From the NCBI GenBank assembly GCA_964370865.1, contig CAYJKF010000001.1, positions 111,766-175,765 on the forward strand: a DNA stretch of 64,000 bases. The letters are read 5' to 3'. The stretch is from an uncultured Candidatus Saccharibacteria bacterium. Its GTDB lineage: Bacteria; Patescibacteriota; WWE3; 2-01-FULL-39-13. Numbering within the stretch: position 1 is the first letter of the stretch; the number at the start of each line of letters is the position of its first letter. The translations under genes were made by a program, and so were the position numbers. The notes under the pieces were generated by a model, which saw nothing but the letters and a program-made list of their open reading frames with translations, was not told the origin of the DNA and ran no database searches. This document shows, piece by piece, positions 1,203-44,044 of the stretch.

Positions 1203-1565
1203 TTAACTACCATCACCTGCTGAAAAAGGCGGATTAAAATAACTATTATCTCCTTCAGAATAACCTAATAGCTTCAAGACTAGCCCTAAGAAAAAGGTTA
1301 TATATGGTAAAGAAATTAATCCTAATACTGCGAAAACAATATTAGTTAAGCCCTCTCTTAGTTTCGTCATAGCATCTTCACTAGGAGATTTAACTACATT
1401 CATAATCGCCATGAAAACATTATATGCCACGAAAACTAACATAATCGCAAAAAGAAAATAATAAACAACATTTAATCCGACATTAGAAATTTGACCAAAA
1501 GAGGATATGAAATCAGATATATTTGTTGGGTCTGGGATACAATTTTCTACATCAGTACATGCCAT
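1203..1565 (-). CDS. small two-helix membrane protein, VirB2/TrbC-pilin-like paralog (third copy)
   Basis: 120 aa with two hydrophobic helices separated by a short loop SPSEDAMTKLREG. It shares the YxLGWA...F.G...L..L.YKL...EEAM....K..V.GL.SL.LGWL..FVGG pattern with 1570..1929 and 2033..2455. It lies 4 nt downstream of the previous paralog. Confidence 0.45.
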   Translation of the reverse strand: MACTDVENCIPDPTNISDFISSFGQISNVGLNVVYYFLFAIMLVFVAYNVFMAIMNVVKSPSEDAMTKLREGLTNIVFAVLGLISLPYITFFLGLVLKLLGYSEGDNSYFNPPFSAGDGS

Positions 1566-1569
1566 CTTT

Positions 1570-1929
1570 TTATTTCAATAAAGTAGGAATAACAAATTGA
1601 ACATTAACTCCGATTAGTCCTCCAACAAATTGTACTAGCCATCCAAGACTTAATGATAGTAAACCTAATACTACTATTACAACGGCCTTCTTGATACCGT
1701 TACTGAAATCAGCCATTGCTTCCTCGCTATCTGATTGGGATAGTTTGTATACTAGCATCATAAGAGTGTATGCAAGTCCAATAAAGGTTAACGCCCATCC
1801 AAGGTAAGAAAACAAATTCAATAGAAAATTGAAGATAGAATACATGCTATCAACTTGTCCGATTTCTGGTAATACTCCAAGATCCTCCTCGGTTATCGCA
1901 TAAGCTTTCTTCACAATAAAATCCATCAT
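1570..1929 (-). CDS. small two-helix membrane protein, VirB2/TrbC-pilin-like paralog (second copy)
   Basis: 119 aa. The motifs YLGWALTFIGLAYTLMMLVYKLSQSDSEEAMADF and LGLLSLSLGWLVQFVGGLIG align almost position by position with the 2033..2455 product. Confidence 0.5.
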   Translation of the reverse strand: MMDFIVKKAYAITEEDLGVLPEIGQVDSMYSIFNFLLNLFSYLGWALTFIGLAYTLMMLVYKLSQSDSEEAMADFSNGIKKAVVIVVLGLLSLSLGWLVQFVGGLIGVNVQFVIPTLLK

Positions 1930-1943
1930 TATTTATATTCTAG

Positions 1944-1976
1944 CAAAAAAGAACGGGGTGCTAAAGCACCCCGTTC
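1944..1976 (-). terminator. rho-independent terminator after first pilin-like gene
   Basis: Perfect 11-bp GC-rich stem gaacggggtgc/gcaccccgttc (1951-1961/1966-1976) with a 4-nt loop. On the minus strand it is followed by TTTTTT (plus-strand aaaaaa at 1945-1950). It sits between the stop of 2033..2455 and the start of 1570..1929. Confidence 0.6.
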
Positions 1977-2032
1977 TTACTCCAAGATGCACTTTTATAA
2001 CTGCATCCTTCAATACCTAAATCGAGTTGTTA

Positions 2033-2455
2033 CTATCCAACAGCAGACACTGGTACATCTGTGAACGGATCAGTTGGTGTTATTTCGTATCCGAAAATTC
2101 CACCTACGAATGTAATTAACCATCCTAAACTCAAAAGTAACAATCCTGCAATAACAATCAAAACTGCCTTAGTTATATAACCTTGTACAGTCTTCATGGC
2201 CTCTTCATTATCTGCATTAAAAAGTTTATATATTAATGAGAATAAAACGAAACCAATTCCAATAAATACCCCCGCCCATCCAAGATACCTAAAGATATTA
2301 TAAACAAACAACAATATCGTATTAAGACCCTCTAGATCTCCGAAATCATTACTCGCTGAATACTCAGTACCCACTAACTCTTGTGCAAATGAAGGAGTCA
2401 CCAATAAAACAAACATTCCAGTGTACGCTGCTAAAATTCCATATAACTTTTTCAT
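2033..2455 (-). CDS. secreted two-helix membrane protein, VirB2/TrbC-pilin-like (putative major subunit)
   Basis: 140 aa. N-terminal signal-peptide-like segment (MKKLYGILAAYTGMFVLLVTPSFAQ), then two hydrophobic helices flanking NADNEEAMKTVQGY. Strong SD AGGAGGTG sits 4-5 nt upstream of the ATG (reverse complement of 2456-2475), and the gene has its own terminator. Confidence 0.55.
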   Translation of the reverse strand: MKKLYGILAAYTGMFVLLVTPSFAQELVGTEYSASNDFGDLEGLNTILLFVYNIFRYLGWAGVFIGIGFVLFSLIYKLFNADNEEAMKTVQGYITKAVLIVIAGLLLLSLGWLITFVGGIFGYEITPTDPFTDVPVSAVG

Positions 2456-2601: not shown

Positions 2602-4470
2602 ATGCCTGCCAATTTACGCTCAAAAATTAATAAAATTTTAGGGAACCTATTAATAGTCTTTTTATTGTTAGCGGGATTTACCTTATTTGCTACAAATACC
2701 CTAGCTGATGAAGCCGAAGATTTAAAAAAAATTGAAGAAGAAATCAAGAAACAAGAAAAAGAGCTTAAAGAAACCGAATCTGAACTTAACAAGGTCCGAG
2801 ATAAATCAAAGCAGATTTCAGATACCCTATCGAAACTCTCTGGTAATTTAAATCTAAATCAATCTCAAATAGACGATCTGCAAAAAAATATAGATGAACT
2901 TACAGTAGATATTAATAATTTAGACAAGAAAATGGGGATAAAAAAGGGCGATTTAGAACAAAATACTAAAATCAGAGATATTGCCCTTAAAGAGCTCTAT
3001 ATAAACAACAAGAAAAATCTTGCAGAAGTAGTTTTAGCCGAATCAGGTGTAAGCCAAATGTTCGAAACAGCAGCTTACTACTTCAATTTTGTGAACAACT
3101 CAGAATCACTAATTAGTCTTATAAATGGGGATATAAAGGGATACGAAGAAGACAAAAACGAAGTCGCCGAGATCAAAGCAAAAATCGAGACTCAAAAAGA
3201 CCAACTTAAAAAAGTAGTTGATCAACTGGCTGCTCAAGTAAATAAATCAAAGACTGACCTAGCCTCAACTGAAAAAGATGCTAATTCACTCGAAGGTGAG
3301 AAACAGAACATTCAAAGAAAACTATCAGAACTATCAGCAAAACAGCAAGCAATTTTAGGTGAGAAGACAGATAGTGGAACATTCACAACGAGTGTAGGAG
3401 ATATCCCTATGACAGGTGAAGCAAGTTCACGCGCTGACTTTAATCCTGGTTTTAAAAAAGCCTTCGCTGGATTCTCTTTTGGCGCACCACATAGAAAAGG
3501 TCTTAGCCAATATGGAGCAAAAGGCCGCGCTGAAGATGGCCAAGATTATAAGGAAATACTCAAAGCATATTATGGTGATATAGAAATTGTTGAAATGAGC
3601 GGACTTCCAAAAAACATATCCACCGATAAGGGTTCGCTAGAATTAGATGGTAAGTATCTAAATGGTCTAGCAGAAATGCCTGCTTCGTGGCATAAAGAAG
3701 CACTAAAAGCTCAAGCAGTCGCAGCAAGAACCTATGCACTTTCATATGTTGGATGGCGAGTCTCCGATAAAGAAGCCAAAAAATCTATTTGTACAACAGA
3801 AAGCTGCCAAGTGTGGTCATCCAGCAAAGCAACTGCTTCATCTGCGGCAAGTTGGCACAAAGCCGTAAGCGACACAAAGTCAGAAGTTATGGTAAGTAAA
3901 AAATCTGGTGATATATTCTCTGCCTTTTATGCAGCTTCATCTGGAGGATATAACTACAGTTATTCTAGTATCGGACACAGTACAAAAGGCGGCTGGGACA
4001 CAGAATGTGGCTCCAAAAACTGCTGGACTAGCGAAGCTTACGAAAGTAAAGGTGGTTCACCCTGGTTTTATAAAGGATGGTATAAATCAAGATCAAATAA
4101 AGCCTGTGGAAGATCTCACCCATGGCTAACCGAAAGTGAATTTGCAGATATAGTAGGAGCAGCTGTTCTCTACACTAAAGATGAAGGAAATGAGGCGCAT
4201 CTATCTCAAATTGATGCACAATCCTGCTGGGGTGAAAGTATAAGTGGAACATGGTCGAGAGATACAGTTAAGGAAAAAACTGGAATAACGAGCGTAGACA
4301 GCGTTTCTGTAAGTTACTCTAACGGTGGAACGACGGCTGAAGTGAAAATAAAAACTAATAAAGGCGAATATAAATTTAGCGGAGAGGACTTTAGAGATAT
4401 ATTTAATCTGAGAGCACCTGGAGTGCTAAATATAAAAAGCGCCTTATACAATATTGAAGTTAAAGATTAA
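2602..4470 (+). CDS. membrane-anchored coiled-coil protein with C-terminal SpoIID/LytB-type domain (peptidoglycan-remodelling)
   Basis: 622 aa. N-terminal TM/signal (ILGNLLIVFLLLAGFTLFA). About 250 aa of heptad-like K/E/L/Q-rich sequence follows. The C-terminal region carries EMPASWHKEALKAQAVAARTYALSY, which I recognise as the conserved SpoIID/LytB signature. Confidence 0.6.
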   Translation: MPANLRSKINKILGNLLIVFLLLAGFTLFATNTLADEAEDLKKIEEEIKKQEKELKETESELNKVRDKSKQISDTLSKLSGNLNLNQSQIDDLQKNIDELTVDINNLDKKMGIKKGDLEQNTKIRDIALKELYINNKKNLAEVVLAESGVSQMFETAAYYFNFVNNSESLISLINGDIKGYEEDKNEVAEIKAKIETQKDQLKKVVDQLAAQVNKSKTDLASTEKDANSLEGEKQNIQRKLSELSAKQQAILGEKTDSGTFTTSVGDIPMTGEASSRADFNPGFKKAFAGFSFGAPHRKGLSQYGAKGRAEDGQDYKEILKAYYGDIEIVEMSGLPKNISTDKGSLELDGKYLNGLAEMPASWHKEALKAQAVAARTYALSYVGWRVSDKEAKKSICTTESCQVWSSSKATASSAASWHKAVSDTKSEVMVSKKSGDIFSAFYAASSGGYNYSYSSIGHSTKGGWDTECGSKNCWTSEAYESKGGSPWFYKGWYKSRSNKACGRSHPWLTESEFADIVGAAVLYTKDEGNEAHLSQIDAQSCWGESISGTWSRDTVKEKTGITSVDSVSVSYSNGGTTAEVKIKTNKGEYKFSGEDFRDIFNLRAPGVLNIKSALYNIEVKD

Positions 4471-4471
4471 T

Positions 4472-5461
4472 CTAAAGTACACCAAACAAATCGGTTACCA
4501 CAATTCTAACAATCACACCTGAAAGAATTATTAAAAATAATCCTTGTATCCAAGACATGAACATATCTTTTCCCTTTTGAATTGTTGCTGGATCACCGCT
4601 AGATAAGTTAAGACCAATTAGTGGAAGCATAAAGAGCGAAGAAACAACACCAAGTCCTATTGCTAAGATATGTGCATTTGATCCAAGTGCAGTAAAACAA
4701 GACTCAATTCCAGCATCTGGACTACAACCCTCAAATAGTCCCCCATCAAATTCAAAACCGGGACCACTTAAGGGATCTCCAGGCACTGGTACATCTGGAT
4801 CACCAGGCGCATCCACTGGGTCGGGATCGCCTTCTATTGGCTCTGGAACATCATCCTCGTCAAGCGGTGCAGTGTAATCGAAGTAGAATGGTTGCAAACC
4901 CAAGGCGTCACCATAAAATATGCTACCATCTCGCGCAGGATCCCTTACTGGCCTTAGATAGGATAAGTTGTAACTAGCATTGTCATTCAGTTCCTGAATC
5001 ATCGCTGTCGGCAATAAAGGGTTTAACGGAATTCTAAGACCTGCACCCGAAAATAATGCATCTAGGGCGGTAGAAAGTTCTGTCGCTTTTGCTTGGGTAA
5101 CTTCAGAAGGTGAATCTACGCCCAACATTTGAGTATATAACAATGCGTTTAGGCTAAAACTAAACATATCCCCTCCTGCAATTGGTACAATTTCTCCGTC
5201 TTGCACTGAATAATCACCAATGACGATAATATAGTCATTTACATAATCACCTGATTCTCCAATTCCATCCCAAGGAATTGGACTATAAGTAAGGGGGTTG
5301 AAAGTAATATCTTTAAGCGTTAAGTACATCATTCCATCCTCTGGGTCCTGTTCGTAACCAATTCCACCAATCAATACGTCATCCTGGGCATATAATGGAC
5401 TTGAAGATAAAAGAAAAAAGAAAATACCAAGTAATCCTAAAATTAATTTGTTTGTTATCAT
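4472..5461 (-). CDS. secreted Asp/Pro-rich protein with C-terminal hydrophobic hairpin
   Basis: 329 aa. Signal peptide ending LYAQ|DD. Acidic proline-rich stretch DPDPVDAPGDPDVPVPGDP. Two C-terminal hydrophobic helices. It is convergent with 2602..4470 with a 1-nt gap. Confidence 0.4.
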   Translation of the reverse strand: MITNKLILGLLGIFFFLLSSSPLYAQDDVLIGGIGYEQDPEDGMMYLTLKDITFNPLTYSPIPWDGIGESGDYVNDYIIVIGDYSVQDGEIVPIAGGDMFSFSLNALLYTQMLGVDSPSEVTQAKATELSTALDALFSGAGLRIPLNPLLPTAMIQELNDNASYNLSYLRPVRDPARDGSIFYGDALGLQPFYFDYTAPLDEDDVPEPIEGDPDPVDAPGDPDVPVPGDPLSGPGFEFDGGLFEGCSPDAGIESCFTALGSNAHILAIGLGVVSSLFMLPLIGLNLSSGDPATIQKGKDMFMSWIQGLFLIILSGVIVRIVVTDLFGVL

Positions 5462-5513: not shown

Positions 5514-5927
5514 ATGACAAATAGAAACAGTCGATTATTGGTTTTATTCTCAATTGCAAGCGCAGAGATTTCTTTTTTACTACCTCGGTATGCATATGCC
5601 CAAGGATGCCAATACGATTTGGATGGAGATCCCCCTGAATTTGGGCCTTATATAGTTTCGTGTTTCCCTAATGTATGGTCAACGATGAGTACACTTATGA
5701 TTGCAGTCGCAATAGGCAGCGCGATGTTACTTCTTTTTACTACTATTAGAGCAAGAAACAATCCTAAAAATTTAGAAACCATTCCTTCGAGATGGATGAA
5801 TTTGATTTTATTTGCCCTTCTAGCAATTGGAGTAGGGGGAACATTATTGAATTTCTTATTAGGCCTTATTGGAGCTGGAAGAGTTCAAACATACATCGAT
5901 ATGCTAGAAAGTGTTTTAAATCCTTAA
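5514..5927 (+). CDS. small secreted membrane protein (signal peptide + two C-terminal helices)
   Basis: 137 aa. Signal-like N-terminus ending AYAQ|GC, a Cys-containing short domain, then two hydrophobic helices. Its architecture resembles the pilin-like set. Confidence 0.35.
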   Translation: MTNRNSRLLVLFSIASAEISFLLPRYAYAQGCQYDLDGDPPEFGPYIVSCFPNVWSTMSTLMIAVAIGSAMLLLFTTIRARNNPKNLETIPSRWMNLILFALLAIGVGGTLLNFLLGLIGAGRVQTYIDMLESVLNP

Positions 5928-5939
5928 AGAAATTTTATT

Positions 5940-7397
5940 CTATTTTCTCTTTTTTGGTCCTGCATCTTCTCCACCGAATAGGGGTTGAACTCCAAGTAAG
6001 CCATCTACAATTTTTCTAGCATTTCTTGCTTTCCAAATTATAGAAATACCAAGAAGCCCCTTTAGTAATACGAACCAAAATTCTAATGTTGTATTAATTA
6101 TATTAAACCCGCTAAACAAAGACTCGCCACTGACATCAGGAGCTATACTCATAATTCCCAAACCTATGACTACAAGAAGGAGCAATAACGGTAATGCAAT
6201 TACATCTGAAACGATTCTCTTTCCAAGATTCATAGCAAGACCCTGTTTACCAGGTAGAACTGATAATAAACCAACAAATGGCGCAAGAACGATTGTTGAT
6301 ACAAGGGATACAAAAATCTTAATGAAACCCCAAAGCCCCGCAAACATAACTACTACTATACCTACAATTGCGGCGACCAAAAAAAGTGCCATTCCAACAC
6401 CATATACGTGTAATCTACTTATTACTCCTATGGCACTATTTAGTGCTCCAACTGCAATAGTCCATACACTAATATCCTGAACCGTGCCCCCCATAATACT
6501 CACGAGTAAGGTTGCCCCGATCCTTAAAGCAAGACCGAGTAGAGGCGGGATTAATGCAAAAGCAGCACTAATAATCGGATAGGATAATAAAATTATTCCA
6601 AGTCCTAGCGGTATTAATGGAAGTACGGAATAAACTGACACCGTGACTTGAGGAGAAATTTTAGTTCTAAACATAATCATCAAACCTACGAGTGCTAGAG
6701 CTGCTCCGAAAAGTGCCAAAGAAATATTTCGTGTAATTTTCCAAGACTCTAAAACAAACTTCTCAAAGGTAGAACCAAAAAAACCGCTCTGAGCATAGGC
6801 CGGTGTAGTAAAAATTGTATTTCCTAAAGTATCGTCAACATATAAAGCTAAATTTGTAGGAATTGGTGCCGTATTAGGTGAAGTCAAGAAGGCGAGACTA
6901 TTACTACCTATATGCCCCAAGCCGTTAGGAATTCTGACATACTCACCTTTTCCAAGATCATTAAAATTTGTTGCATTTGTCCATGTTGCGGCTGGGTCAA
7001 TACAAACTCCACTTTCTAAAAGCTCTTCCATTGTTTGATCGCATACATGTTGAGTTATATTGTTATAAACCAAATTTTGCATTAAAAATGATTGCCCCCA
7101 CATATTCGCATTTAATTCGCATTGACCATCTGAATCTACAAATTCTTTGAAACCACACCATAGGTTGTATACAGAAGATAATGATCTCCAAGCTTGTACG
7201 CCAGCTGTAACCGGATTGATAGCCTCTGCAGGAGTTGGATCTACTAATGCTCCAACTTGTGCATTTGTGGCATTTGGTTTTAATAGTGCAGACATTAAAA
7301 CAGCAAAAATGAAAATTGATAAGGCAAAGGGGAATACCCTGTCACCAAAGTTTTGTATTTTTCTAATTAATGAGAATAAAGCGACGATAATATTCAT
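5940..7397 (-). CDS. polytopic membrane protein, VirB6/TrbL-like candidate
   Basis: 485 aa. N-terminal signal/TM, a ~180-aa extracytoplasmic region, then at least 6 hydrophobic helices and a basic C-terminal tail (KKRK). The call rests on topology and genomic context only. Confidence 0.4.
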   Translation of the reverse strand: MNIIVALFSLIRKIQNFGDRVFPFALSIFIFAVLMSALLKPNATNAQVGALVDPTPAEAINPVTAGVQAWRSLSSVYNLWCGFKEFVDSDGQCELNANMWGQSFLMQNLVYNNITQHVCDQTMEELLESGVCIDPAATWTNATNFNDLGKGEYVRIPNGLGHIGSNSLAFLTSPNTAPIPTNLALYVDDTLGNTIFTTPAYAQSGFFGSTFEKFVLESWKITRNISLALFGAALALVGLMIMFRTKISPQVTVSVYSVLPLIPLGLGIILLSYPIISAAFALIPPLLGLALRIGATLLVSIMGGTVQDISVWTIAVGALNSAIGVISRLHVYGVGMALFLVAAIVGIVVVMFAGLWGFIKIFVSLVSTIVLAPFVGLLSVLPGKQGLAMNLGKRIVSDVIALPLLLLLVVIGLGIMSIAPDVSGESLFSGFNIINTTLEFWFVLLKGLLGISIIWKARNARKIVDGLLGVQPLFGGEDAGPKKRK

Positions 7398-7496: not shown

Positions 7497-10400
7497 ATGC
7501 CACCAAAAAAGTTCGAGAAACCAGTCACATTTTCTGGATGGGTTGAAGATATATTTAATCTTCCTAAAGAAGTAACTAACCAGACATTCGGAGTAATAAA
7601 AACAAAACACCAAGAATATTTGGTATGGGTAGCTAAAGCTCGTGCCTCGGATGCTGATTATGCTGAAGCAGATTTAATTCGAGCTTTTACTGAAGGTGCA
7701 GAAGCTTTATCAGATTTACAGGGTATAAATACAACTATTAAAGTTAATGAACTATACGCGAAACCTATCAATACTATTAAAGCTCTGGGACAAAGCACTC
7801 TTAAACAATTGACTGACATGGATGATCTCGCTGGTTATCGACGTGCTGATGCAATCGCTAGGTTAACCAAGGGGCAAGTTACAGACGGACGAGGTAACAT
7901 ACCAAACAGCAGATATATTGATGTTGGTCGGTCAATCAATAATCCTCAAAATTTGATCTTAAAGGGACTAACTACTTCTAGAATAATTCCTCTAAAGCCT
8001 GACGCACTAGTAGAAACCACTCCTAGTGGAAAACTGCGATCAACCATGCAACTTGTAAAAGACGTAACGGAAGGAAAAGATCCAGCAGGTGTTGGAGATT
8101 GGGAAGATCGAAAAGTTGTGGAGGATGGTGTCGGCAGGGATCAACAACATAAACCGTATTTACAACTTTCCGGAGCGTTTTCGCAAATGGCAATGGGTCT
8201 TGAGTCCTATGGCTCAAGGTTAAGTCCAAAAATTACAGTTAATACCCAATACGGTCGCGCACTTGCACAAGAAGTAGGAATTGACCTGGAAAAGGTTTTA
8301 AACGGATCAAGAGGCGGATTGAAAGCCAGTTATGACCTAGACATTAAAGATGCAGTAAGCGGAAGACCAAAATTCCTAAAAGATAATAGACTCAAAAAGA
8401 GTGGAGCAGTAACAATAGGTTCTCTGCATCTCACACTAGCAGACGATGCTGGCGGTGATATTCGGAAATTATTATCCGATGACAATTTAATAGCTAAAGC
8501 ATTATCGATTAGCCCTACTGAATACACAAGTATGAGTGGTGAAGTCAAAGAATTCTTCAAAAACTTTTTAGAAAACGAAGAAATTCAGATTCGTTCCGGT
8601 TATTTAAATCCAAGGGGCGAACTTGGTGAAGAAATAAAAGCAAAATGGAATAATGCGGGACTCGTTCCCTCTCTAGAAGGCGAAATATACACTGGTGCAG
8701 GTGCTGCTTATATTAAGAATGACTTATATCATCTATCGAATGCAAAAAGTACAAAACAGTATCTATTAGGTGATGCGTCGCAAAAACAAATTAAAGCTGA
8801 GGCCTTAAAATCTTTGAAAAAAAAATACGGACATGACGCAAAGCTATTAACAGAAAAGACCGAAGAATTTTATGACAGATTGGCTGCGTTAAATGAAGCT
8901 ACGGTATCTGCCAACACCTTATTCGCCTCTGCAACAGTTAAAGATGCACTTAAAGCTATAAAAGATGGCGATTTTATTAAAGCAGCAATCGTCAATACAA
9001 GATTGCTGGGAATGATTCCGTTTTCAAACAAAAAGATGAGATCTCCAATCGAGTGGGCTGAAATTCTTATGCCTGATAGTGCACAAGATATCATCAATAA
9101 GGGAATAAATAGACTAACTAAACCGAAAATCGATGAGTTAAAGAGATTAGCATCAAGTACGACAGATCCGGTAATTCAACAAAGATACCTTAATCAAATT
9201 AAGAATCTAGAAGGTCTGAAAAACTGGATTAATCCAATTACAATTGCCAAGAAAGTTAGCGATACCGCACAGACAGCCATTGGTATTAAGGTAAAAGGAA
9301 GTCAATTAAACGCTGCACAAAAATTGATAAATGAGCAGACCGGACTGTTCAACTCAACTGTCTTCCTGGAATGGAGACAAAGAGATCCCGTATCCATGCA
9401 AAACGCTAAACGCTACACCATGACGCGAGTAAGTTCAAAAGATGCACAAGGCTTATATGGTAAATTTGGGGTTTTTAGTATTTTTGAAGACATAGAAGCA
9501 GCAAATTTATTCGCACATCCAAGCCTATCTGGCCTCCCATATATACATGATATGCAAACGATGTTTACTGATTTATCAAACATCGATGCATTCTATGCGG
9601 AATTAGCTCGAGTTCAGAGCCATTTAAAAGCGGGGACTCCAATACCTGCGGATTTATTAGATTTTTATAACAACGTCGTAGTACCAATGAATTTCCACGA
9701 GGCATTAGGAGGTGCGGGGGAGTTTGTCATCGACAAGGTAATGGATGGATACAATCAATATAAAGTATCAGGCAAAGTTTTACTTAATAAAATATCTGAT
9801 GACGCGAAAATGGGAGTTGGCAAATTGCATGCCATTGACAGGTGGCAATTTTTAAAAACCTTCAAAGGAAGTGGCCGTGCATCACAACTAAATGATTTAT
9901 ATACAGGCTGGTTAACAAAATATAACCGCTATGCCAACTTCTTCAATGATTACATCCAAAAAAATATTATATTTGGCGATGTACTACTTGGTGTACCTAT
10001 CTTGGGAAAACTTTTTGCTCCTATTCAGGCAGTCTTACGTACGATTGGATTTAGCGAGGAAGTTACAATTGCGGCAACTGTGAGACAGTGGAAATGGGTT
10101 CAACGGCTAATCGGAACAGGAGAAAAAGCGTCGAACATAGGGGGATCACTTTCGGCACGAAGCAGTGGTTCATTATTTGTTAAATCAAGATTTTTAAGGA
10201 ATTTAACATCAAAGTTAACAGGAAAATTTGCTGGCACAGCATTAAAAGGATTAGGATTTGCACTTAAAGGTTTAACCTCTGTAATAACTGGTGGTGTAGC
10301 TTTTGTAGTTTCCACTCTCGGTACGATGGCGTTCAGTGCCAGTTTAAAACTTATTAGAGGTGATGTAAAAGGCGCAAAAATCGCGATTAAAGATGAATTT

Positions 10401-11438
10401 AAAGGATTAGTAAAAGTAGCAAAAATTGTCGTCGGTTATCCTCTTCTTGGGTTTTGTGGCTGCATTATTATTCCAATCGTAGGTATTGCCTTTGCCGTAA
10501 TCGCGATTATGGTACCAGGTTCCATGGCGCCATTTGAAGAAGTTGGTGAAGCCGTAAATGTCGGATCGGCTCTCAGTCAATCCGACTTACTACAAGTTAA
10601 TAAATCAGCAACACTTAGCGGCGACAATACTCAAATAAACTACACAGTTGTAATTACGAATATACACACACCGACTGAACCAGATGATACAGGTGAAGTT
10701 ACAATCCAACAGATTAGTGATGTCTCGTCAATGATTTTAGGATGCGACGAACCTAATGGCGGTACTTCACACAGATATGGAGATGCTGGCTTCATAGGAA
10801 ACTACGATGCTGGTTATAATTTCAACCAATATACTGGCCATGTTTTAGCAACAGGTGAAAGCTTAACCATTACTTATACTCTTTCGAATATTACAGACAA
10901 AGATGCAACGTATAATAACAATATTAACGTCCACGAATCTAGAGAAAAAATAGCTGGAAAATATGCCATCGCGAATTCAACAACAAACATAGGTAACGGG
11001 GGGTGTAATACATGTCCTAGCGGGTGGCCTGTCACTGGTGCGGTTAATATAACTAATAGGCCTGGAGAAAGTTGGACACACAGAGGTCTTTGGCCTCATT
11101 CAATAGATTTGTCACTTGTTGAAGGAACTGAAATTTATGCCACCCATAGCGGAACCGTAGCAACCTCAAATACTGGTAACTTCGGTTATGGTACACATAT
11201 TTATCTCACCTCACCGATGGGGTTTACTAGTATTTATGGACATCTTAGCGGTTTCGCGGTAGAAAACGGAGCGACTGTTCAGGCTGGAGATTTAATCGGC
11301 TATTCTGGTGATACCGGTAACTCATCCGGTCCGCATCTGCACTATGAATTCAGAATCGGGGGCTATTGCCAAGGTCAACCACTTAAGATGAAACCACCTT
11401 TCACGCCATATTATGTACCTTATGATCCGTCGTATTAG
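7497..11438 (+). CDS. giant (1313 aa) protein with central TM hairpins and C-terminal M23/LytM peptidase domain (cell-wall hydrolase)
   Basis: The C-terminus has the M23 signatures HRGLWPHSIDL (HxxxD) and GDTGNSSGPHLHYEF (HxH), flanked by glycine-rich beta segments. Residues ~870-1000 contain several hydrophobic helices (VAFVVSTLGTMAFSASL, LLGFCGCIIIPIVGIAFAVIAIMV). The N-terminal 850 aa are predicted helical and non-secreted. Confidence 0.65.
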   Translation: MPPKKFEKPVTFSGWVEDIFNLPKEVTNQTFGVIKTKHQEYLVWVAKARASDADYAEADLIRAFTEGAEALSDLQGINTTIKVNELYAKPINTIKALGQSTLKQLTDMDDLAGYRRADAIARLTKGQVTDGRGNIPNSRYIDVGRSINNPQNLILKGLTTSRIIPLKPDALVETTPSGKLRSTMQLVKDVTEGKDPAGVGDWEDRKVVEDGVGRDQQHKPYLQLSGAFSQMAMGLESYGSRLSPKITVNTQYGRALAQEVGIDLEKVLNGSRGGLKASYDLDIKDAVSGRPKFLKDNRLKKSGAVTIGSLHLTLADDAGGDIRKLLSDDNLIAKALSISPTEYTSMSGEVKEFFKNFLENEEIQIRSGYLNPRGELGEEIKAKWNNAGLVPSLEGEIYTGAGAAYIKNDLYHLSNAKSTKQYLLGDASQKQIKAEALKSLKKKYGHDAKLLTEKTEEFYDRLAALNEATVSANTLFASATVKDALKAIKDGDFIKAAIVNTRLLGMIPFSNKKMRSPIEWAEILMPDSAQDIINKGINRLTKPKIDELKRLASSTTDPVIQQRYLNQIKNLEGLKNWINPITIAKKVSDTAQTAIGIKVKGSQLNAAQKLINEQTGLFNSTVFLEWRQRDPVSMQNAKRYTMTRVSSKDAQGLYGKFGVFSIFEDIEAANLFAHPSLSGLPYIHDMQTMFTDLSNIDAFYAELARVQSHLKAGTPIPADLLDFYNNVVVPMNFHEALGGAGEFVIDKVMDGYNQYKVSGKVLLNKISDDAKMGVGKLHAIDRWQFLKTFKGSGRASQLNDLYTGWLTKYNRYANFFNDYIQKNIIFGDVLLGVPILGKLFAPIQAVLRTIGFSEEVTIAATVRQWKWVQRLIGTGEKASNIGGSLSARSSGSLFVKSRFLRNLTSKLTGKFAGTALKGLGFALKGLTSVITGGVAFVVSTLGTMAFSASLKLIRGDVKGAKIAIKDEFKGLVKVAKIVVGYPLLGFCGCIIIPIVGIAFAVIAIMVPGSMAPFEEVGEAVNVGSALSQSDLLQVNKSATLSGDNTQINYTVVITNIHTPTEPDDTGEVTIQQISDVSSMILGCDEPNGGTSHRYGDAGFIGNYDAGYNFNQYTGHVLATGESLTITYTLSNITDKDATYNNNINVHESREKIAGKYAIANSTTNIGNGGCNTCPSGWPVTGAVNITNRPGESWTHRGLWPHSIDLSLVEGTEIYATHSGTVATSNTGNFGYGTHIYLTSPMGFTSIYGHLSGFAVENGATVQAGDLIGYSGDTGNSSGPHLHYEFRIGGYCQGQPLKMKPPFTPYYVPYDPSY

Positions 11439-11457: not shown

Positions 11458-12489
11458 ATGATTAGTATAAAACCTTTGATAGAAAAAAATAAAAAAATAG
11501 CCATATTAATTCTAGTTTTATTTTTGGGTGGTTTAATTTATTATCTATTTTCGAGCGGTATATTTTTAGGTCCTGGACCAGGTACAAGTGTCATTGACCT
11601 TTCTACACCAAGTATTAATGTAGCTGGAAACCAAGAAAGTAAATATAAGATAGAAAGATCTCTTTATTTCAAAGTTACGAATCCGCACGGCGGTGAAATA
11701 CTTCCAATTTATAAATATAACAAAAATGATTTAACTACTGATGAGCAGTTAATAGGAAAAATAGCCGAAGAAGTTGGACTCACCAAAAAAAAAGAAATTA
11801 ATTCAGTTGGACAAGGAACTGTCCTTGTTTTGCATTCAGAAGATAGTGCAAGGGGTATCACATTAAATAAACAAAACAACGTTCTAACTTATAGTAATAT
11901 CAGCTACGACAAAGCTATACATTTTAAAACCAACGATCAAATCGAAAAGGCTCGTAATTCAGCAGAAAGTTTTTTGAAGGAATTAAACCTCTGGAGTGAA
12001 AATTATAGTCTAATTGGCGCTCTATATAGAGATGATAAAATATCTTCTCAACAGCCAGAAACTTCAACCCCACTAAATCAGTCTACAACTGTAGAATTTT
12101 TATTTGAAAATAAAATTGATGGCTATGAAGTATCTACTCTACCCTATTCGGTTCAAGGTGATTATATTAATATCGCGGTATCCGCTGATAATTACACCAT
12201 CACAAAAATTCAATTAGTAATTTCAGGTGAAATTTCAAGTGAACAAGGCAAGGTAAAGATTATTTCATTAAATGACCTTATTAGAGATATAGATAATGGA
12301 AACCTAAAATTAATAGATACGTTAGCAGAACCTGATGCGGTATTTGACAGAATCGTTGTGTCGGAAGCTACTATCTTTTATTATGCACTTGATGGTCAAA
12401 TAGTTCCTGCATATAGAATTACAGGAACAGCAACTGACCAACGAGGGCAAGCATCGCCTGTTTATTTTATCGCCAATGCTTTCAAATAA
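11458..12489 (+). CDS. bitopic membrane protein (N-terminal TM, extracytoplasmic domain); VirB8/PrgL-like candidate
   Basis: 343 aa with a single N-terminal helix IAILILVLFLGGLIYYLF, then a soluble domain. The VirB8-like call is based on size, topology and neighbourhood only. Confidence 0.35.
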   Translation: MISIKPLIEKNKKIAILILVLFLGGLIYYLFSSGIFLGPGPGTSVIDLSTPSINVAGNQESKYKIERSLYFKVTNPHGGEILPIYKYNKNDLTTDEQLIGKIAEEVGLTKKKEINSVGQGTVLVLHSEDSARGITLNKQNNVLTYSNISYDKAIHFKTNDQIEKARNSAESFLKELNLWSENYSLIGALYRDDKISSQQPETSTPLNQSTTVEFLFENKIDGYEVSTLPYSVQGDYINIAVSADNYTITKIQLVISGEISSEQGKVKIISLNDLIRDIDNGNLKLIDTLAEPDAVFDRIVVSEATIFYYALDGQIVPAYRITGTATDQRGQASPVYFIANAFK

Positions 12490-15400
12490 AATAGTTTATA
12501 AAATAATATTGGTTGCATTAATCCCTGTTGTGGTAATGGCAATTTTTGCAAATAGAAAAACCGAAAAAGTGTGCGCACAAGTTGAGGGCTTTGACCCAGC
12601 AAGCGCATTCGCAGAATGTATAGGACCGGAACTTGCAGCATACATGCTAGCAATATTAGATGCACAAGCTGCTGGATTAATTCCTTCTAATATCAAACTA
12701 CTATCTCCAGCCTTTAATATGACTTCGAGTACTCTTAATCCTATTGTTGGTGCTGTAAACGAAGCAGCTCCAGGAATCTTTAATCATCCAAATTTAGTTG
12801 GAATTGCAGGTAATATATATGACACTAGTGGTGGAAATTCTATGGGAGATTACTGGTCGAACCAAAATATTAACGGGCTATTTGGAAATATCCCAATTTA
12901 TATTACTGAAACAGGAAATACTGAAAATAGCGGACTATCAAACAGACAAACTGCAGATAATATTGCCGCATTACTGCAAAGCAATCCTAACATTCAAAAT
13001 ATTTCGCTATTTGTTCCAACCGGAAGTAATCCCGCGTATGGTCATCATTCGTGGTCTCAAGACGAAATAAATTATCTTTGCAGCATAACTAACGGGTGCG
13101 AAAAAATTGGTATTAATTATGGAACGTATTTTGGTGGAAATGATTATCACGATGTTAATAACTACAATATGAATTCAGGACTGCAAATCGCCGACATGGG
13201 AAGTATTCCAAGTATTATAGAGGCAGTAAACAATTCTAACGGGGATGTAATTGTAAGAATTGGAGTTGGATCAAGTTCAGGAGGATTTGATACTCCACAA
13301 GCTTATATAAAGTTTCTTAAAGAATTGGGTGACAGTTTACCCCCTGGAGCTAGCGTATTTGCTATTGCTGGTCCAAACGAACCGGATTTAGAGGGCTGGT
13401 TAAGTCCAGAATGCATGAACCTCTTACCTATTAATCCAGCTGACATGTTATGTGGAGGACGAATTGATGAAAAACCCGTGGGTTATCGAGGTGAGGTCGT
13501 TGGACATAATGGTGAAATTCCATGGAGTATCAATTCTAACTTACATCAACAGAAAGATCTTATAGGTGGAACGGTTGAAGGTCAATTAGCATCAACCCTC
13601 CAAGCAGAATTTATAATAAGAGTCCCGCCAAATACTTTTAGACACAATGATTTTAGAGTCGTATCCGATCAAATGGTAGGTTCATTAGATCCAGATGATC
13701 CAAACAATCTCTATTTCGAAGATCGGTTGAGAGACGAAGATGGATTTATAAGTCCACTGAAAGCAAATATGCCTATTTTCAACTCAGCCTTACCTGGAGT
13801 AAAAATTCCGAGTAGTTATTCAGTTGGCATAAATGAGACCTTTCAGTTTGCAGAGTCAAATGAGACACCTGAAGCATATTTAGAGAGAATTTTCAAAAAA
13901 ACTCCTGAACCTGGAGATGGACGTAAACCAGAATTCGGATGGCTCACAGAAATGCCAGCAATGGTTTTTCGAGCATGTATTCAACGGTCTGCCTGCAACC
14001 TTGGTGTAGAAGAATGTTTGAGGGCAGACGGAAGCGGTGAGCTATGCGATGGGAGCGATGATGCTGAGGATTGTAGACCATTTGGACGAACTTTTAATTT
14101 GACTGGCAGGATTGGCCATCGAGAACCTACTGAACTTCACTCGATTTCAAGAAGTTTTGAATTGCAAAAGAGACAACTTGTAGATAGACCAGGCGAACCA
14201 ACTAGTTTCGGAGCTGTTGTAACACAAGAAGATTTGTCTAGATCAACCTATGTCTTTAAAGATCCTGATTTAAATGAGTTAGCGGATGGTATGAAATATA
14301 TTCAAGAGATAAGTCAAAATAGAAATACAAACTATAAAACCTCAAGTGGAAAAGAAGTAACAGTTGCCAACACTAATAATGGTTCTTTAATCAAACCTGC
14401 AGTGGCAAATGCTCAAGGTGATCCAATGGCTCAACCACAAGGGTCACTCGGTGTTGTTGTTATCGAGTTAGGAGGCAATCAGGTTCAAATAGACTATGAA
14501 ACATGTGTTTGGCATCAACTTGGATCTGCTTGTGCAATTCGAGATGTTAGTACAACAATTAATGGACAAGGAACTTTTAACTATATACCAGTTACTCAAG
14601 CAAATATACCAAGGTGTCTAAAACCAAGCTGGGGAAATGCTCCAGTTATTACAGCAGATCTTGCACCAGGAACTTGTACAACACTAAGTGTTCACACAAG
14701 AGGTGGTAGAGTTGGTCCAGAAGGTTGTAGCGATACCTATCAAGACTCCTGCGAAATTTGTAGAGCAAATGATGGAACGATAACTCAAACCTGTGGAATA
14801 ATTCCTCCACCACCACCCGTTGATTGTAGTCAATGTGCAAGTTGGGCACCCAGTTGGCTATGCGCACCAATTATCGCAGACCCCTTACCCGAAGAAACCG
14901 AGTGTGCAGATGGAGCATGTACCTCAAGCGGAAAAATAAGCATAGAAAAAGAGATTCCATGGCAGGATGATGATGATGACCCCGATGATATAAATGATTG
15001 GATTATAAACTGGCTCGATCGACTTAGAGAAGGGGATTTTACCTGGCTAAGTGGACTCTTGGCTGGACTTTTAGAGACAGAAAGAACTGGCGTTAGATGC
15101 GATATCGACTATTCTCTTCCTTCAGAGTCCCCGGGAGGTATTCGTTTCCCAATAGGAATTGAATGTTGGTTTGGATCGCGAGATTATTTAGTATATGCAT
15201 ATCCAATAACATATATTGGCGACTTTGGTGAGAGAACGGTCGATATGTCTATAAACAATGCTATGTTCAGATTAAGTAACAAAACTGACCAATATTTTTG
15301 GCCACAAAGTACAAAAGCACCAGTAACCTTAAAGCTATCGTTAAGAGATCCAACAATTGATGACGAAACCGTAAGATTTGAGGTCCCAAATGGATCCGAA

Positions 15401-16027
15401 CGAGGCTTTGAAATTGGCGCACAAAATACGTTTTATTTAGGACTTAATGACTCTGGTGAAAGAACCATGTTTGTTGAGTATTACTACTTTATGCAACCAC
15501 AGACGAGTGGACAGTGTTTAAAACAGCGTTTCTTATCTCAACCGATTCCTTTGCCTGGCGGAGGAACCGGAGTTCCACTAAGTCATAATACGCTTTGCGG
15601 TTCTCAGGATTTTTGGACTTCTGGCATTACTAGTGGCGACACTACTTCAGCAGTGGATCAAAGAATGATGGCAGCCGTAGAACAAATAGAACAAAATCTA
15701 CTTGCTACTACTGATAGCCAAGATAAAGTTGCCGCTGAAATAAATTTAGATCAAGATATAGTTCCTCAAATTCGAAAATTATATGAACAAGATAAGCATG
15801 CAGATTATGCTGGTAGCAAAATTATGTCGAACATGACATTATCAGAAGTTGAAAATCTTCAAAATCAATTTCTTTCTGAATTTGAAATCATCCTAAATAA
15901 ATACTTCATGTCGAGTGGTAAAGGAGTTTTTAAGGATATAAACGATACACCCGAAAGCATGGAGAAAGAACTAGATGCCTTAGTTAGAAAATACGATAAT
16001 CGGGTTAGCGCTATCGTGAATAACTAA
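12476..16027 (+). CDS. giant (1183 aa) secreted Cys-rich surface protein
   Basis: N-terminal TM/signal (IILVALIPVVVMAIF). A Cys-dense segment CSDTYQDSCEICRANDG...CGIIPPPPPVDCSQCASWAPSWLCAP, an acidic DDDDDPDD run, and no catalytic motif I can place. The start overlaps the previous gene by 14 nt. Confidence 0.5.
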   Translation: MLSNKIVYKIILVALIPVVVMAIFANRKTEKVCAQVEGFDPASAFAECIGPELAAYMLAILDAQAAGLIPSNIKLLSPAFNMTSSTLNPIVGAVNEAAPGIFNHPNLVGIAGNIYDTSGGNSMGDYWSNQNINGLFGNIPIYITETGNTENSGLSNRQTADNIAALLQSNPNIQNISLFVPTGSNPAYGHHSWSQDEINYLCSITNGCEKIGINYGTYFGGNDYHDVNNYNMNSGLQIADMGSIPSIIEAVNNSNGDVIVRIGVGSSSGGFDTPQAYIKFLKELGDSLPPGASVFAIAGPNEPDLEGWLSPECMNLLPINPADMLCGGRIDEKPVGYRGEVVGHNGEIPWSINSNLHQQKDLIGGTVEGQLASTLQAEFIIRVPPNTFRHNDFRVVSDQMVGSLDPDDPNNLYFEDRLRDEDGFISPLKANMPIFNSALPGVKIPSSYSVGINETFQFAESNETPEAYLERIFKKTPEPGDGRKPEFGWLTEMPAMVFRACIQRSACNLGVEECLRADGSGELCDGSDDAEDCRPFGRTFNLTGRIGHREPTELHSISRSFELQKRQLVDRPGEPTSFGAVVTQEDLSRSTYVFKDPDLNELADGMKYIQEISQNRNTNYKTSSGKEVTVANTNNGSLIKPAVANAQGDPMAQPQGSLGVVVIELGGNQVQIDYETCVWHQLGSACAIRDVSTTINGQGTFNYIPVTQANIPRCLKPSWGNAPVITADLAPGTCTTLSVHTRGGRVGPEGCSDTYQDSCEICRANDGTITQTCGIIPPPPPVDCSQCASWAPSWLCAPIIADPLPEETECADGACTSSGKISIEKEIPWQDDDDDPDDINDWIINWLDRLREGDFTWLSGLLAGLLETERTGVRCDIDYSLPSESPGGIRFPIGIECWFGSRDYLVYAYPITYIGDFGERTVDMSINNAMFRLSNKTDQYFWPQSTKAPVTLKLSLRDPTIDDETVRFEVPNGSERGFEIGAQNTFYLGLNDSGERTMFVEYYYFMQPQTSGQCLKQRFLSQPIPLPGGGTGVPLSHNTLCGSQDFWTSGITSGDTTSAVDQRMMAAVEQIEQNLLATTDSQDKVAAEINLDQDIVPQIRKLYEQDKHADYAGSKIMSNMTLSEVENLQNQFLSEFEIILNKYFMSSGKGVFKDINDTPESMEKELDALVRKYDNRVSAIVNN

Positions 16028-32829: not shown

Positions 32830-34074
32830 ATGGAGAATCCTGCCAATGAGCAATTAAACACCCAAGAAGTCAACAATTCAGAATTCGCACAGAAAGAGCC
32901 ACTTGTTTATAAAAAAACTATAAAAAAATATGCAATGATCGCGGTGAGTGGCTTATTAGGACTGGCCATAATAATTACTGCTGTCGTTATCTATATGCGT
33001 TTTATGGATAGATTTAATGTGACGGAACCAACTCCACCGGTGACACCAACACCAACTCCTGAAATACCAAAAGCAGCATCGCCATTAATCGCCTATATTA
33101 AAAATGATAAATCAATTTGGATTGTAAACACTGATGGAACTGATAAAAAAGTATTGCTCGAACTGCCTGGATCATCGGATCAGTTCTTCTCGGATCTGAC
33201 TTGGAAAAGCAAAGGGTTTCTATCTTATTCACTCTGTGACACAAATCCAAATTGTACTGTGGAGACTTATAATTTAGAGACAAAGTCTTCTGTAACAGAA
33301 ATTAATAATTCAGAAGAAGGATTTGTGGAGTCATTAACTTGGGCACCTGAAAATAAATTCATCGGGTATTTTCAATACAAAGACCAAGGATCTCAGAACC
33401 AAACGGTGGAACTAAGACTTAAGACTGGAACAACCAATACTGTTTTATCAACACATAAAACAGAAATAAAAGATATCGAACAAGTCTCAAAAGTAACTTT
33501 CTCAGAAGACGAGGATCATATAGCCTTTGGTTTTGTAGAATTAGTTGCTTCAACAAGAGGCCGGACTATTACATATACAGCAAAACCTAAAATCTTAGTA
33601 TATAGAGTAAGCGGAGTATTGTTGGATACAATCAGCGATGCCAAAGACCCGATGTTCATAGACGAAAAAACCATCGCATATCAAAAGGGAGCACAGCTCA
33701 TACATAGGGAAATTGGGACATTATCAGAAACAGCTATTACTCCAATAACAGGATTCAACTTAGATGTTTCTCCTGACAAAAGTAAGTATGCATATTGGAG
33801 CCCTACAGGTGGATTCTCAGATGCTTTATTAATTATTTTTGATGGAAACCTAAACCTTCAAAGGAATATATTAAGAGGCGTCCTATTTCCACAGTGGATA
33901 AGCAACTCTACCGTTGTTGGGATAAAAGCTGATAACTGTTTAGGTTCAAAATGTGAATTATTCGATTATCAAACCATTAGTTTAGCTACCGTTAACATCG
34001 AAACAAAACAAGCAAATCCAATTGATCAAGGTCGCACTATTAAAGATGTTGAAGTAAATTACTATGCCAATTAA
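32830..34074 (+). CDS. membrane-anchored hypothetical protein with Pro/Thr linker and beta-rich extracytoplasmic domain
   Basis: 414 aa. TM helix IAVSGLLGLAIIITAVVIYM, linker TEPTPPVTPTPTPEIP, then a repetitive beta-strand-like domain. The stop overlaps the next gene's start by 11 nt. Confidence 0.4.
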   Translation: MENPANEQLNTQEVNNSEFAQKEPLVYKKTIKKYAMIAVSGLLGLAIIITAVVIYMRFMDRFNVTEPTPPVTPTPTPEIPKAASPLIAYIKNDKSIWIVNTDGTDKKVLLELPGSSDQFFSDLTWKSKGFLSYSLCDTNPNCTVETYNLETKSSVTEINNSEEGFVESLTWAPENKFIGYFQYKDQGSQNQTVELRLKTGTTNTVLSTHKTEIKDIEQVSKVTFSEDEDHIAFGFVELVASTRGRTITYTAKPKILVYRVSGVLLDTISDAKDPMFIDEKTIAYQKGAQLIHREIGTLSETAITPITGFNLDVSPDKSKYAYWSPTGGFSDALLIIFDGNLNLQRNILRGVLFPQWISNSTVVGIKADNCLGSKCELFDYQTISLATVNIETKQANPIDQGRTIKDVEVNYYAN

Positions 34075-36442: not shown

Positions 36443-36446
36443 AAAT

Positions 36447-43967: not shown

Positions 43968-44044
43968 TGGTGGGCGGACATGGACTCGAACCATGAACCT
44001 CCAAGGTATAAGCTTGATGCTCTAACCAGTTGAGCTATCCGCCC
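43968..44044 (-). tRNA. tRNA with anticodon UAU (tRNA-Ile reading AUA), CCA encoded
   Basis: Reverse complement folds as acceptor GGGCGGA/TCCGCCC, D-arm GCTC-AACTGGTTA-GAGC, anticodon arm TCAAG-CTTATAC-CTTGG (U33, TAT, A37), T-arm CATGG-TTCGAGT-CCATG, discriminator A, CCA. Confidence 0.65.

Follow-up and report, generated by a model that had tools for sequence, protein, structure and literature searches.

A large part of the bacterial diversity that is still uncultivated belongs to Patescibacteria, which live in attachment to other cells, and a type IV secretion system (T4SS)-like machinery is essential in their sole genetically tractable species. All known Gram-positive VirB1 homologs are membrane-anchored proteins with extracellular enzymatic domains (reviewed in PMC12857230). 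A survey of Patescibacterial T4SSs described these systems as mating-pair formation (MPF)-FATA-like and lacking relaxases, reported VirB6, VirB8, and VirB1 homologs as scarce or undetectable in Microgenomatia and VirB2-like arrays as especially abundant in the same group, and found M23 domains in some Patescibacterial VirB1 homologs (PMC12102498). The essential T4SS cluster of Southlakia epibionticum includes SEML1_0006, which carries two lysozyme-like domains and a cysteine protease domain, along with an NTF2-like protein, a 1088-aa VirB6-like protein, and six PF18895 pilins (PMC10633639). It also includes SEML1_0007, an essential 1113-aa protein without any Pfam domain encoded directly after virB4 (Wang et al. 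2023, PMC10633639, Tables S1/S2), which displays a C-terminal DD-peptidase fold at residues 951-1105, with Foldseek relatives among proteins annotated with M15B or M23 domains (PMC10633639). Here, we analyzed a 64,000-nucleotide stretch of DNA (“the window”) from contig CAYJKF010000001.1 of an uncultured Candidatus Saccharibacteria bacterium, and specifically a gene for a 1313-residue protein ending in an M23 peptidase domain, hereafter the giant M23 protein. An original prediction for this DNA had left the protein ambiguous between a T4SS wall hydrolase and a phage tape-measure-like protein. Our tentative preference, to which we would give somewhat less than an even chance of being correct, is that it acts as the wall hydrolase (VirB1-type function) of a Patescibacterial monoderm-type T4SS or pilus apparatus, the link to the T4SS being contextual.

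The gene product is a real 1313-residue membrane protein carrying a cell-wall-cutting M23 peptidase. Based on the list of open reading frames (ORFs) and their translation, the gene lies at 7497..11438 on the + strand and begins with an ATG, its coordinates and protein length being those initially proposed. A partial protein with 90% identity, encoded in a metagenome-assembled genome labeled “Patescibacteria group bacterium”, has the same initial methionine, and an N-terminal consensus, MPxP..TFxGW, is kept among relatives in the family alignment, in agreement with the called start. The gene is the first of a three-gene operon, with a 19 bp gap before the second gene and a 14-bp overlap between the second and the third, and is divergent from the gene for p485. 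The window derives from the chromosome of a reduced genome with a low GC content (32-40%), and its housekeeping content includes LeuRS, GroEL, IF-2, PNPase, NusA, L25, and four tRNAs. A scan of the locus for promoters and terminators was uninformative.

In a Pfam scan of the whole protein, the sole domain identified was Peptidase_M23 (PF01551), at residues 1202-1289 (E=3.8e-23, 81.9 bits vs a cutoff of 28.7), which bears out the C-terminal M23 domain proposed at the outset. Pfam, PDB matches, and family alignments together delineate an M23 peptidase domain at residues 1166-1313 (10992..11438, + strand). A total of 39 PDB M23 chains were matched at E<=0.01 (best 7e-18), and all NCBIfam, PHROG, and PDB sequence matches fell within residues ~1120-1307. 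Three cysteines are conserved around the domain, namely C1170 and C1173, which form a CxxC within a conserved GGCxxCPxGWP motif preceding it, and C1291 after the Pfam match.

Judged by the profile match and by three of four motif elements, the protein belongs to the M23 family. The HxH motif (H1280-L-H1282) and the catalytic histidine of the (Y)xHL motif (H1249, within YGHL) align with their counterparts in TagE and 3slu, are invariant in an 8-sequence alignment, and are conserved at a level of at least 90% in a 24-sequence alignment. D1204 is likewise conserved across the family and aligned with solved M23 enzymes. In contrast, the canonical HxxxD first zinc-ligand motif was not found in the 1313-aa protein: when the family profile is compared to TagE and 3slu, the canonical histidine position (D-4) corresponds to Pro1200 here and to Ala, Val, or Ile in relatives. 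At the next position, 1201 (D-3), at least 90% of relatives have Glu, and the window protein alone has His. The histidine that is invariant in the family is instead H1195, located 7-9 residues before the aspartate, with an H-x8-D spacing here and H-x6-D in most relatives. The catalytic motifs had been called intact, and this holds for HxH (H1280/H1282), H1249, and D1204 but not for the “HxxxD in HSIDL”, which was mis-registered: HSID reads H-x-x-D, with the canonical histidine column at Pro1200 and the invariant histidine at H1195. Failure of the M23 motifs to align in register had been named as grounds for abandoning the assignment; the profile does align, with HxH, H1249, and D1204 in register and the D-4 histidine out of it. 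The spacing between H and D is known to vary within M23, such that the first motif found here may be a functional variant. The non-canonical first zinc-ligand motif means that activity is not certain, and from these alignments the enzyme is probably active with a non-canonical first-ligand arrangement. Separately, a divergent family member (P0024, at L019 6277-10317) lacks the otherwise invariant upstream histidine (TWRGKG-GEAVD) and may represent a degenerate or regulatory copy.

The position of this domain relative to the membrane was evaluated by a Kyte-Doolittle hydrophobicity scan, with Lys/Arg counts for the flanks. No hydrophobic signal was detected at the N-terminus, in line with the absence of a signal peptide noted originally, and hydrophobic segments were found at residues 823-847, 928-947, and 972-1013. 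Only one of these includes a strongly hydrophobic stretch conserved family-wide, a transmembrane (TM) segment at residues ~977-1006 (10425..10514, + strand), with a Kyte-Doolittle peak of 2.86 and equivalent scores of 2.4-3.4 in all 14 relatives examined. The segments at 823-847 and 928-947 are weak or missing in many of these 14 relatives, and are probably peripheral or amphipathic, judging from their hydrophobicity, rather than membrane-spanning. The stretch between them (848-927) holds 13 Lys/Arg residues and is therefore probably cytoplasmic rather than an extracellular loop. The “mid-protein TM hairpins” of the original prediction were thus an over-reading, since the segment at ~977-1006 alone is strongly hydrophobic in every member and the putative loop carries 13 K/R. 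The flanks of the conserved segment are Lys-rich on the N side and acidic on the C side. Because there is one conserved strong TM segment with positive-inside flanks, the sequence suggests an N-in/C-out topology in which ~975 residues are cytoplasmic, followed by one TM segment and by a beta domain and the M23 domain on the outside. The broader call, i.e., a large membrane-embedded protein that lacks a signal peptide and delivers an M23 wall peptidase, stands.

The regions on either side of the membrane differ in predicted structure. Residues 1007-1165 (10515..10991, + strand) form a putative beta-rich extracellular spacer, for which an AlphaFold2 (AF2) model of residues 1-1100, built with seven family sequences (mean predicted local distance difference test score, pLDDT, of 54.8), indicates strands at 1026-1078 with low pLDDT, and in which K1036, Y1049, D1075, C1083, T1138, and N1141 are conserved. 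On the opposite side, residues 796-976 (9882..10424, + strand) constitute a membrane-adjacent, Gly/Ala/Lys-rich region, defined from the hydrophobicity scan and K/R counts and helical in the low-confidence AF2 model. The family-specific N-region, residues 1-795 (7497..9881, + strand), is probably cytoplasmic and consists of short helices in globular blocks without known domain; its conserved residues include P90, D204, Y221, R241, E259, E361, R461, and G652. In the AF2 model, pLDDT reaches 70-94 in blocks at ~170-270, 300-480, and 630-790, and DSSP assigns 59% helix to residues 1-800, with a longest helix of 42 residues and small beta elements. This model indicates that the N-region is made of globular helical domains, and not a coiled-coil ruler. 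The “long helical N-region” first described is therefore upheld as to its predicted helical content (59%) but not as to its form, as these are short helices, of 42 aa at most, arranged in globular blocks.

We did not identify a recognizable fold for the N-terminal 1100 residues by AF2 combined with Foldseek and profile searches. The N-region yielded zero matches to Pfam (whole-protein scan) or NCBIfam, a best Foldseek match to PDB structures at E=0.19, and a best match of its family profile to PDB sequences at E=0.93. The family itself is rare, lineage-restricted, and of fixed architecture. An exhaustive single-sequence phmmer search with residues 1-1100 against 1.84 billion representatives recovered 33 clusters only, the complete members of which are nearly all 1260-1475 residues long with a C-terminal M23 domain. 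A 6-sequence query found the family in 2 of 185,579 species-representative genomes. With the full-length protein as query, a homolog search gave two near-identical fragments plus an unrelated M23 protein of a phage; with the family alignment, it gave the two fragments only. All examined loci and named homologs are Levybacteria-like, and homologs of the gene downstream of the M23 gene include one from a genome named Candidatus Levybacteria (GCA_001783875.1). The ultrasmall bacterium from which the window comes is therefore Levybacteria-like (Microgenomatia, Patescibacteria).

The genomic context of the giant M23 gene is conserved. In relatives whose proteins are 22-36% identical, gene order is kept as 2-TM paralogs (-), coiled-coil SpoIID (+), p329-like (-), p137-like, p485-like (-), M23 (+), a ~343 aa protein (+), and a giant protein of ~1200-1330 aa (+), and longer contigs continue with RNase H, DUF4012, L25, FtsJ, and LeuRS. 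SpoIID proteins are 57-67% identical across loci, as opposed to 21-41% for the other members. The module, most of which evolves fast, thus dates back to the ancestor of the lineage and is carried on the chromosome, where it represents a fixed envelope unit specific to a Levybacteria-type Patescibacteria lineage. Three Levybacteria relatives (L015/L016/L017, at ~1940-2600) carry a small gene pair with a PIN-domain protein, toxin-antitoxin-like, inserted between the SpoIID and p329-like genes, which indicates that the module tolerates insertions. A few genes downstream of the module, the window encodes an 893-aa DUF4012 protein (17263-19944, + strand) that is kept in all longer contigs.

Among the individual members, p343 (11458..12489, + strand), whose gene invariably comes right after the M23 gene, combines an N-terminal TM anchor with an extracytoplasmic YycH/YycI-like fold. 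Its AF2 model, built from seven sequences (pLDDT 67.9, predicted template modeling score 0.63), matched YycI (2o3o), YycH (2fgt), and a WalK-YycH model (9a5d_B) when compared to PDB with Foldseek (E 1e-6 to 8e-4, probability 1.0). A VirB8-like chain was absent from the top 50 Foldseek matches, and hhalign against PrgL gave a probability of 0.6%. Hence, a VirB8/TcpC/PrgL NTF2-like identity was rejected in favor of the YycH/YycI fold, and the modeled structure identifies p343 as a YycH/YycI-like single-pass protein, not VirB8. The likeness to YycH/YycI, which are regulators of WalK, lies in the N-terminal TM segment followed by extracytoplasmic alpha/beta domains that adopt a common fold (Foldseek E=1.2e-6, probability 1.0). 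Sequence identity, however, is only 11-13%, and p343 is encoded with a wall hydrolase in a module without a WalK-type kinase. We regard p343 as a candidate partner or regulator of the giant M23 protein.

The third gene of the operon encodes p1183 (12476..16027, + strand), a giant surface protein that is rich in Cys and anchored at its N-terminus, and that is syntenic with and 28-30% identical to its orthologs. One of these, on a Levybacteria contig (L015 11029-14964), matches PF11790 Glyco_hydro_cc (E=1.7e-8). In the window protein, the N-terminal 400 residues are unalignable to this ortholog; they contain the motifs IYITETG and GPNEPD and match GH1 weakly (E=0.075). From these sequence features, p1183 may carry a glycoside-hydrolase-like, interchangeable enzymatic head on a conserved body; the ortholog match and the weak GH1 similarity alone do not establish a glycoside-hydrolase assignment for the window protein.

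Upstream, and divergent from the M23 gene, p485 (5940..7397, - strand) is a polytopic protein in which a signal anchor is combined with a ~180-residue extracellular domain and ~7 TM segments. Its orthologs, 32-41% identical, adjoin the M23 gene in every locus. No match was obtained in Pfam (six orthologs), NCBIfam, or PDB profiles, and no similarity to PrgH by hhalign; by analogy, p485 is a candidate channel or VirB6 analogue. Also conserved in the module is the neighboring p137 (5514..5927, + strand), a small protein with a signal peptide and two TM segments. Of all members, the one that evolves most slowly is p622 (2602..4470, + strand; 57-67% identity across loci), in which a membrane anchor and a long coiled coil precede a SpoIID domain of the lytic transglycosylase family (Pfam E=8.9e-19). 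This architecture of N-terminal anchor, long coiled coil, and SpoIID resembles that of EnvC or PcsB.

Two further sets of proteins complete the module. The first, p329 (4472..5461, - strand), has a secreted, variable N-terminal domain and, at its C-terminus, a 2-TM region that weakly resembles T4SS pilins. The window protein matches T4SS_pilin (PF18895) weakly (E=0.018, 15.5 bits vs a cutoff of 26.6), p329 orthologs in two relatives (L005 and L007) reach ~1e-3, and overall 5 of 24 module proteins match PF18895 (best E=4.3e-7), with one matching TrbC/VirB2. The second consists of p120, p119, and p140 (1203..2455, - strand), three small paralogs encoded in an array, with a signal-plus-2-TM, VirB2-type pilin-like layout. 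The p140/p119 group and the p120 group are paralogs, with an hhalign probability of 97%. None of the three matched PF18895 at E<=10, and hhalign against the p329 C-terminus gave probabilities of 0.9-1.6%; their identification as PF18895/TrbC pilins is accordingly unsupported by profile. Neighbors previously described as “pilin/VirB6-like” therefore retain that description in part, through the weak PF18895 similarity in the p329 family, but p485 shows no PrgH or Pfam similarity.

A T4SS core locus is found elsewhere in the window (32830..38561, + strand), and comprises p414, a PrgI-domain protein (34064-35746, +; Pfam PrgI), a TrsD-like protein (35747-36442, +; NCBIfam TrsD, E=5e-6), and a VirB4 ATPase (36447-38561, +; Pfam TraG P-loop, NCBIfam CD1110-family VirB4, E=2e-118). 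No hydrolase, VirB6, or pilin genes were identified in this locus, and housekeeping genes follow it, a convergent DUF192 gene lying directly downstream of virB4. The M23 module and the PrgI/TrsD/VirB4 locus are thus complementary in content, and a T4SS-like system split over two chromosomal loci is plausible. The PrgI (VirB3-like) domain is N-terminal in a protein of 560 residues in which a CarboxypepD_reg-like domain is also present, and which far exceeds the ~117 residues of PrgI of pCF10. Between the two loci, the window encodes a PEGA and SH3_3 protein (24992-26230, - strand), and the Southlakia essential T4SS cluster also starts with a PEGA-domain exported protein (SEML1_0005). Other features of the window include a tRNA-Ile with anticodon UAU, uncommon in bacteria (43968-44044, - strand), and a protein of 1029 residues (60890-63979, - strand) in which a GH16 fragment accompanies a CarboxypepD_reg-like domain, another large putative surface glycan-active protein.

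We prefer a T4SS-associated wall hydrolase as the function of the giant M23 protein because its layout resembles those of SEML1_0007 and PrgK and because the contents of the two loci are complementary. The gene context also speaks for it, through the pilin similarity of the p329 family, weak in the window protein, and through the array of 2-TM paralogs. Under this scenario, the M23 domain would cleave peptide cross-links locally and let a pilus or channel through the wall, and might also open the wall of the host cell carrying the epibiont. The membrane anchor and the YycI-like p343 would confine or gate this activity, and the protein would be linked to the cytoplasmic face of the machine through its large cytoplasmic region. 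The T4SS link, the substrate wall, the topology, and the catalytic competence are all properties that we infer for this protein. Several observations weigh against such a role: the M23 gene is located ~25 kb and ~20 genes away from virB4, with housekeeping genes between; the pilin match of the window p329 is below the Pfam threshold, and the three small paralogs have no pilin match; p485 bears no similarity to VirB6 or PrgH; p343 is YycH/YycI-like and not VirB8-like; the giant M23 protein has no similarity to PrgK and no glycosidase or CHAP domain; and the non-canonical first zinc-ligand motif makes activity uncertain.

In the other interpretation offered by the original prediction, the giant M23 protein would be a tape-measure or ejection protein with a lytic M23 domain, derived from a phage, tailocin, or prophage. 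T5 pb2 is an example of a tape-measure/ejection protein with an M23 domain, and the layout of the giant M23 protein, with its long helical N-region, hydrophobic segments, and C-terminal M23, does resemble such proteins. In addition, its M23 domain is matched by PHROG tape-measure families and by the phage internal proteins 9k2v_E and 9m7n_A (E ~1e-6 from a single sequence, 1e-15 to 2e-14 with the family profile). However, all phage-family matches are confined to the C-terminal ~190 residues (aa ~1120-1307), i.e., M23 and ~45 residues upstream, with the PHROG tape-measure matches covering just residues ~1175-1292, and no homology to phage tape-measure proteins extends outside M23. Seven orthologous N-regions matched 0 PHROG families, a tblastn search with residues 1-1000 found no match in 50,697 phage genomes (INPHARED), no relative of the giant M23 protein was found in the 2.9 million viral contigs of IMG/VR, and a Foldseek comparison of the N-region to BFVD viral structures returned noise (best E=7e-3, probability 0.20, TM score 0.09). 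The near-continuous long alpha-helix of tape-measure proteins is also missing, the longest helix being 42 residues. Nor is there a phage neighborhood: Pfam scans of the window's larger ORFs (most >=100 aa) revealed no head, tail, portal, or terminase families, or any other phage structural or packaging family, and the housekeeping flanks (RNase H, L25, FtsJ, LeuRS) are retained in chromosomal synteny in relatives at 22-36% identity. We therefore rejected the tape-measure, tailocin, or prophage interpretation, which synteny and the null searches of the N-region leave with a negligible likelihood.

A possible but on balance doubtful alternative to the T4SS-associated hydrolase is that M23, SpoIID, p485, and p343 form a regulated autolysin complex for growth and division of the cell's own wall, with no T4SS link, akin to FtsEX-EnvC/PcsB, SpoIID/M/P, or WalK-YycHI hydrolases, the small 2-TM proteins being unrelated membrane proteins. 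This would be consistent with the structural relatives of p343, as YycH and YycI regulate WalK, a kinase of cell-wall homeostasis, with the EnvC/PcsB-like combination of SpoIID and N-terminal coiled coil at 57-67% identity, with the stable chromosomal position of the module amid housekeeping genes, and with pilin and VirB6 similarities that are weak or absent. On the other hand, a family serving a core function in division should occur widely, whereas the M23 family is very rare (33 clusters; 2 of 185,579 genomes). All module proteins but SpoIID evolve fast (21-41%), as is typical of surface or host-interaction proteins, PF18895 matches recur among p329 orthologs, and the T4SS core locus would otherwise be left without a hydrolase. 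Surface proteins of this kind could also be aimed at another cell. In that case, the M23 domain, the glycosidase-like head of p1183, and SpoIID would act as a weapon digesting host peptidoglycan at the contact site and giving access to host contents, with or without a T4SS, a scenario compatible with the T4SS-hydrolase interpretation. The presence of three wall- or polysaccharide-active proteins in one module points in this direction, and the rapid divergence of M23, p343, and p1183, along with the apparently variable p1183 head, fits host adaptation. Cultivated Patescibacteria are obligate epibionts, and several essential Southlakia envelope proteins are predicted to bind or degrade polysaccharides (PMC10633639). 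Yet the giant M23 protein is TM-tethered with only ~300 extracellular residues, such that its reach past the cell's own wall is not obvious, there is no sign of release or cleavage and no host known for the lineage, and the glycoside-hydrolase annotation belongs to a p1183 ortholog and not to the window protein; we consider this scenario unlikely. A bolder version, which we see as a long shot, would have the module form an as yet undescribed organelle with which Levybacteria-type epibionts breach host walls or feed, and in which the ~800-975-aa cytoplasmic region would be a new adaptor coupling the T4SS ATPase core, encoded elsewhere on the chromosome, to gated extracellular peptidoglycan cleavage at the contact site, by an M23 site with H-x6-8-D and Glu/His at D-3.

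Regarding the T4SS-associated hydrolase that we favor, the module provides candidates for the missing T4SS parts of Microgenomatia, namely a tethered M23 peptidase, a YycI-like partner, and a polytopic protein. If the T4SS link is true, these organisms would open walls with giant peptidases that are specific to the lineage and whose catalytic heads are interchangeable, M23 here and a DD-peptidase fold in Southlakia, and the system could be split between two chromosomal loci. If it is false, the module would still be a compact and unusual autolysin complex. While the protein is unsurprising in kind, it has an unusual M23 site, a YycI-like partner, and a ~800-975-aa N-region without recognizable fold.

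Compared to known enzymes, the catalytic fold is that of lysostaphin/LytM-type M23 peptidases (PF01551, MEROPS M23B) at the sequence level, with D1204, H1249, and HxH in common. The giant M23 protein departs from these by the lack of a D-4 His, by an invariant His 7-9 residues before the Asp, by a Glu (in the family) or His (here) at D-3, and by additional Cys residues. As regards whole-protein architecture, PrgK of pCF10, a monoderm VirB1-type T4SS hydrolase of the DELTA class related to TraG of pIP501, CwlT, and TcpG, likewise combines a cytoplasmic N-region, a single TM segment (PrgK 245-278 in the same scan), and an extracellular hydrolase part that includes a LytM/M23-type domain, and the proposed role, local opening of peptidoglycan for a monoderm T4SS, would be shared. 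However, the active domain of PrgK is a muramidase flanked by LytM and CHAP domains, whereas M23 is the sole recognizable enzymatic domain of the giant M23 protein, in which Pfam, NCBIfam, and PHROG searches found no glycosidase (SLT, muramidase, or glucosaminidase) or CHAP/NlpC-P60 domain. The cytoplasmic region is also ~975 residues long as opposed to ~245 in PrgK, and BLASTP revealed no similarity between the two proteins (best E=0.22). Similarly, prgK is located directly after virB4 and before the VirB8-like prgL, whereas the M23 gene is ~25 kb from virB4 with a YycI-like gene downstream; rather than the VirB1-class position next to virB4 or a virB8-like gene, it is found near pilin-like genes. 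The PrgK/TcpG-class architecture first suggested is therefore retained, by prediction, as a membrane anchor with an extracellular hydrolase, but our comparison with PrgK did not extend it to cluster position, glycosidase/CHAP content, or sequence similarity. Homology to conjugative-plasmid hydrolases was rejected, as a tblastn search with residues 1-1000 found no match in 72,556 plasmids and there was no PrgK similarity.

SEML1_0007 shares with the giant M23 protein an origin in Patescibacteria, a length above 1100 residues, a long N-terminal part without Pfam domain, and a C-terminal peptidoglycan-peptidase domain, which amounts to an architecture match only. Its C-terminal domain has a Hedgehog/DD-peptidase (M15-like) fold, not M23, and its gene is directly downstream of virB4 and next to that for a lysozyme/CHAP protein, unlike the giant M23 gene. 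Overall, the closest analogues of the giant M23 protein, as compared by architecture, are PrgK-type hydrolases and SEML1_0007, and it is best described as a giant wall peptidase of a Patescibacterium, anchored in the membrane and specific to its lineage, with SEML1_0007 and VirB1 proteins of the DELTA class as analogues.

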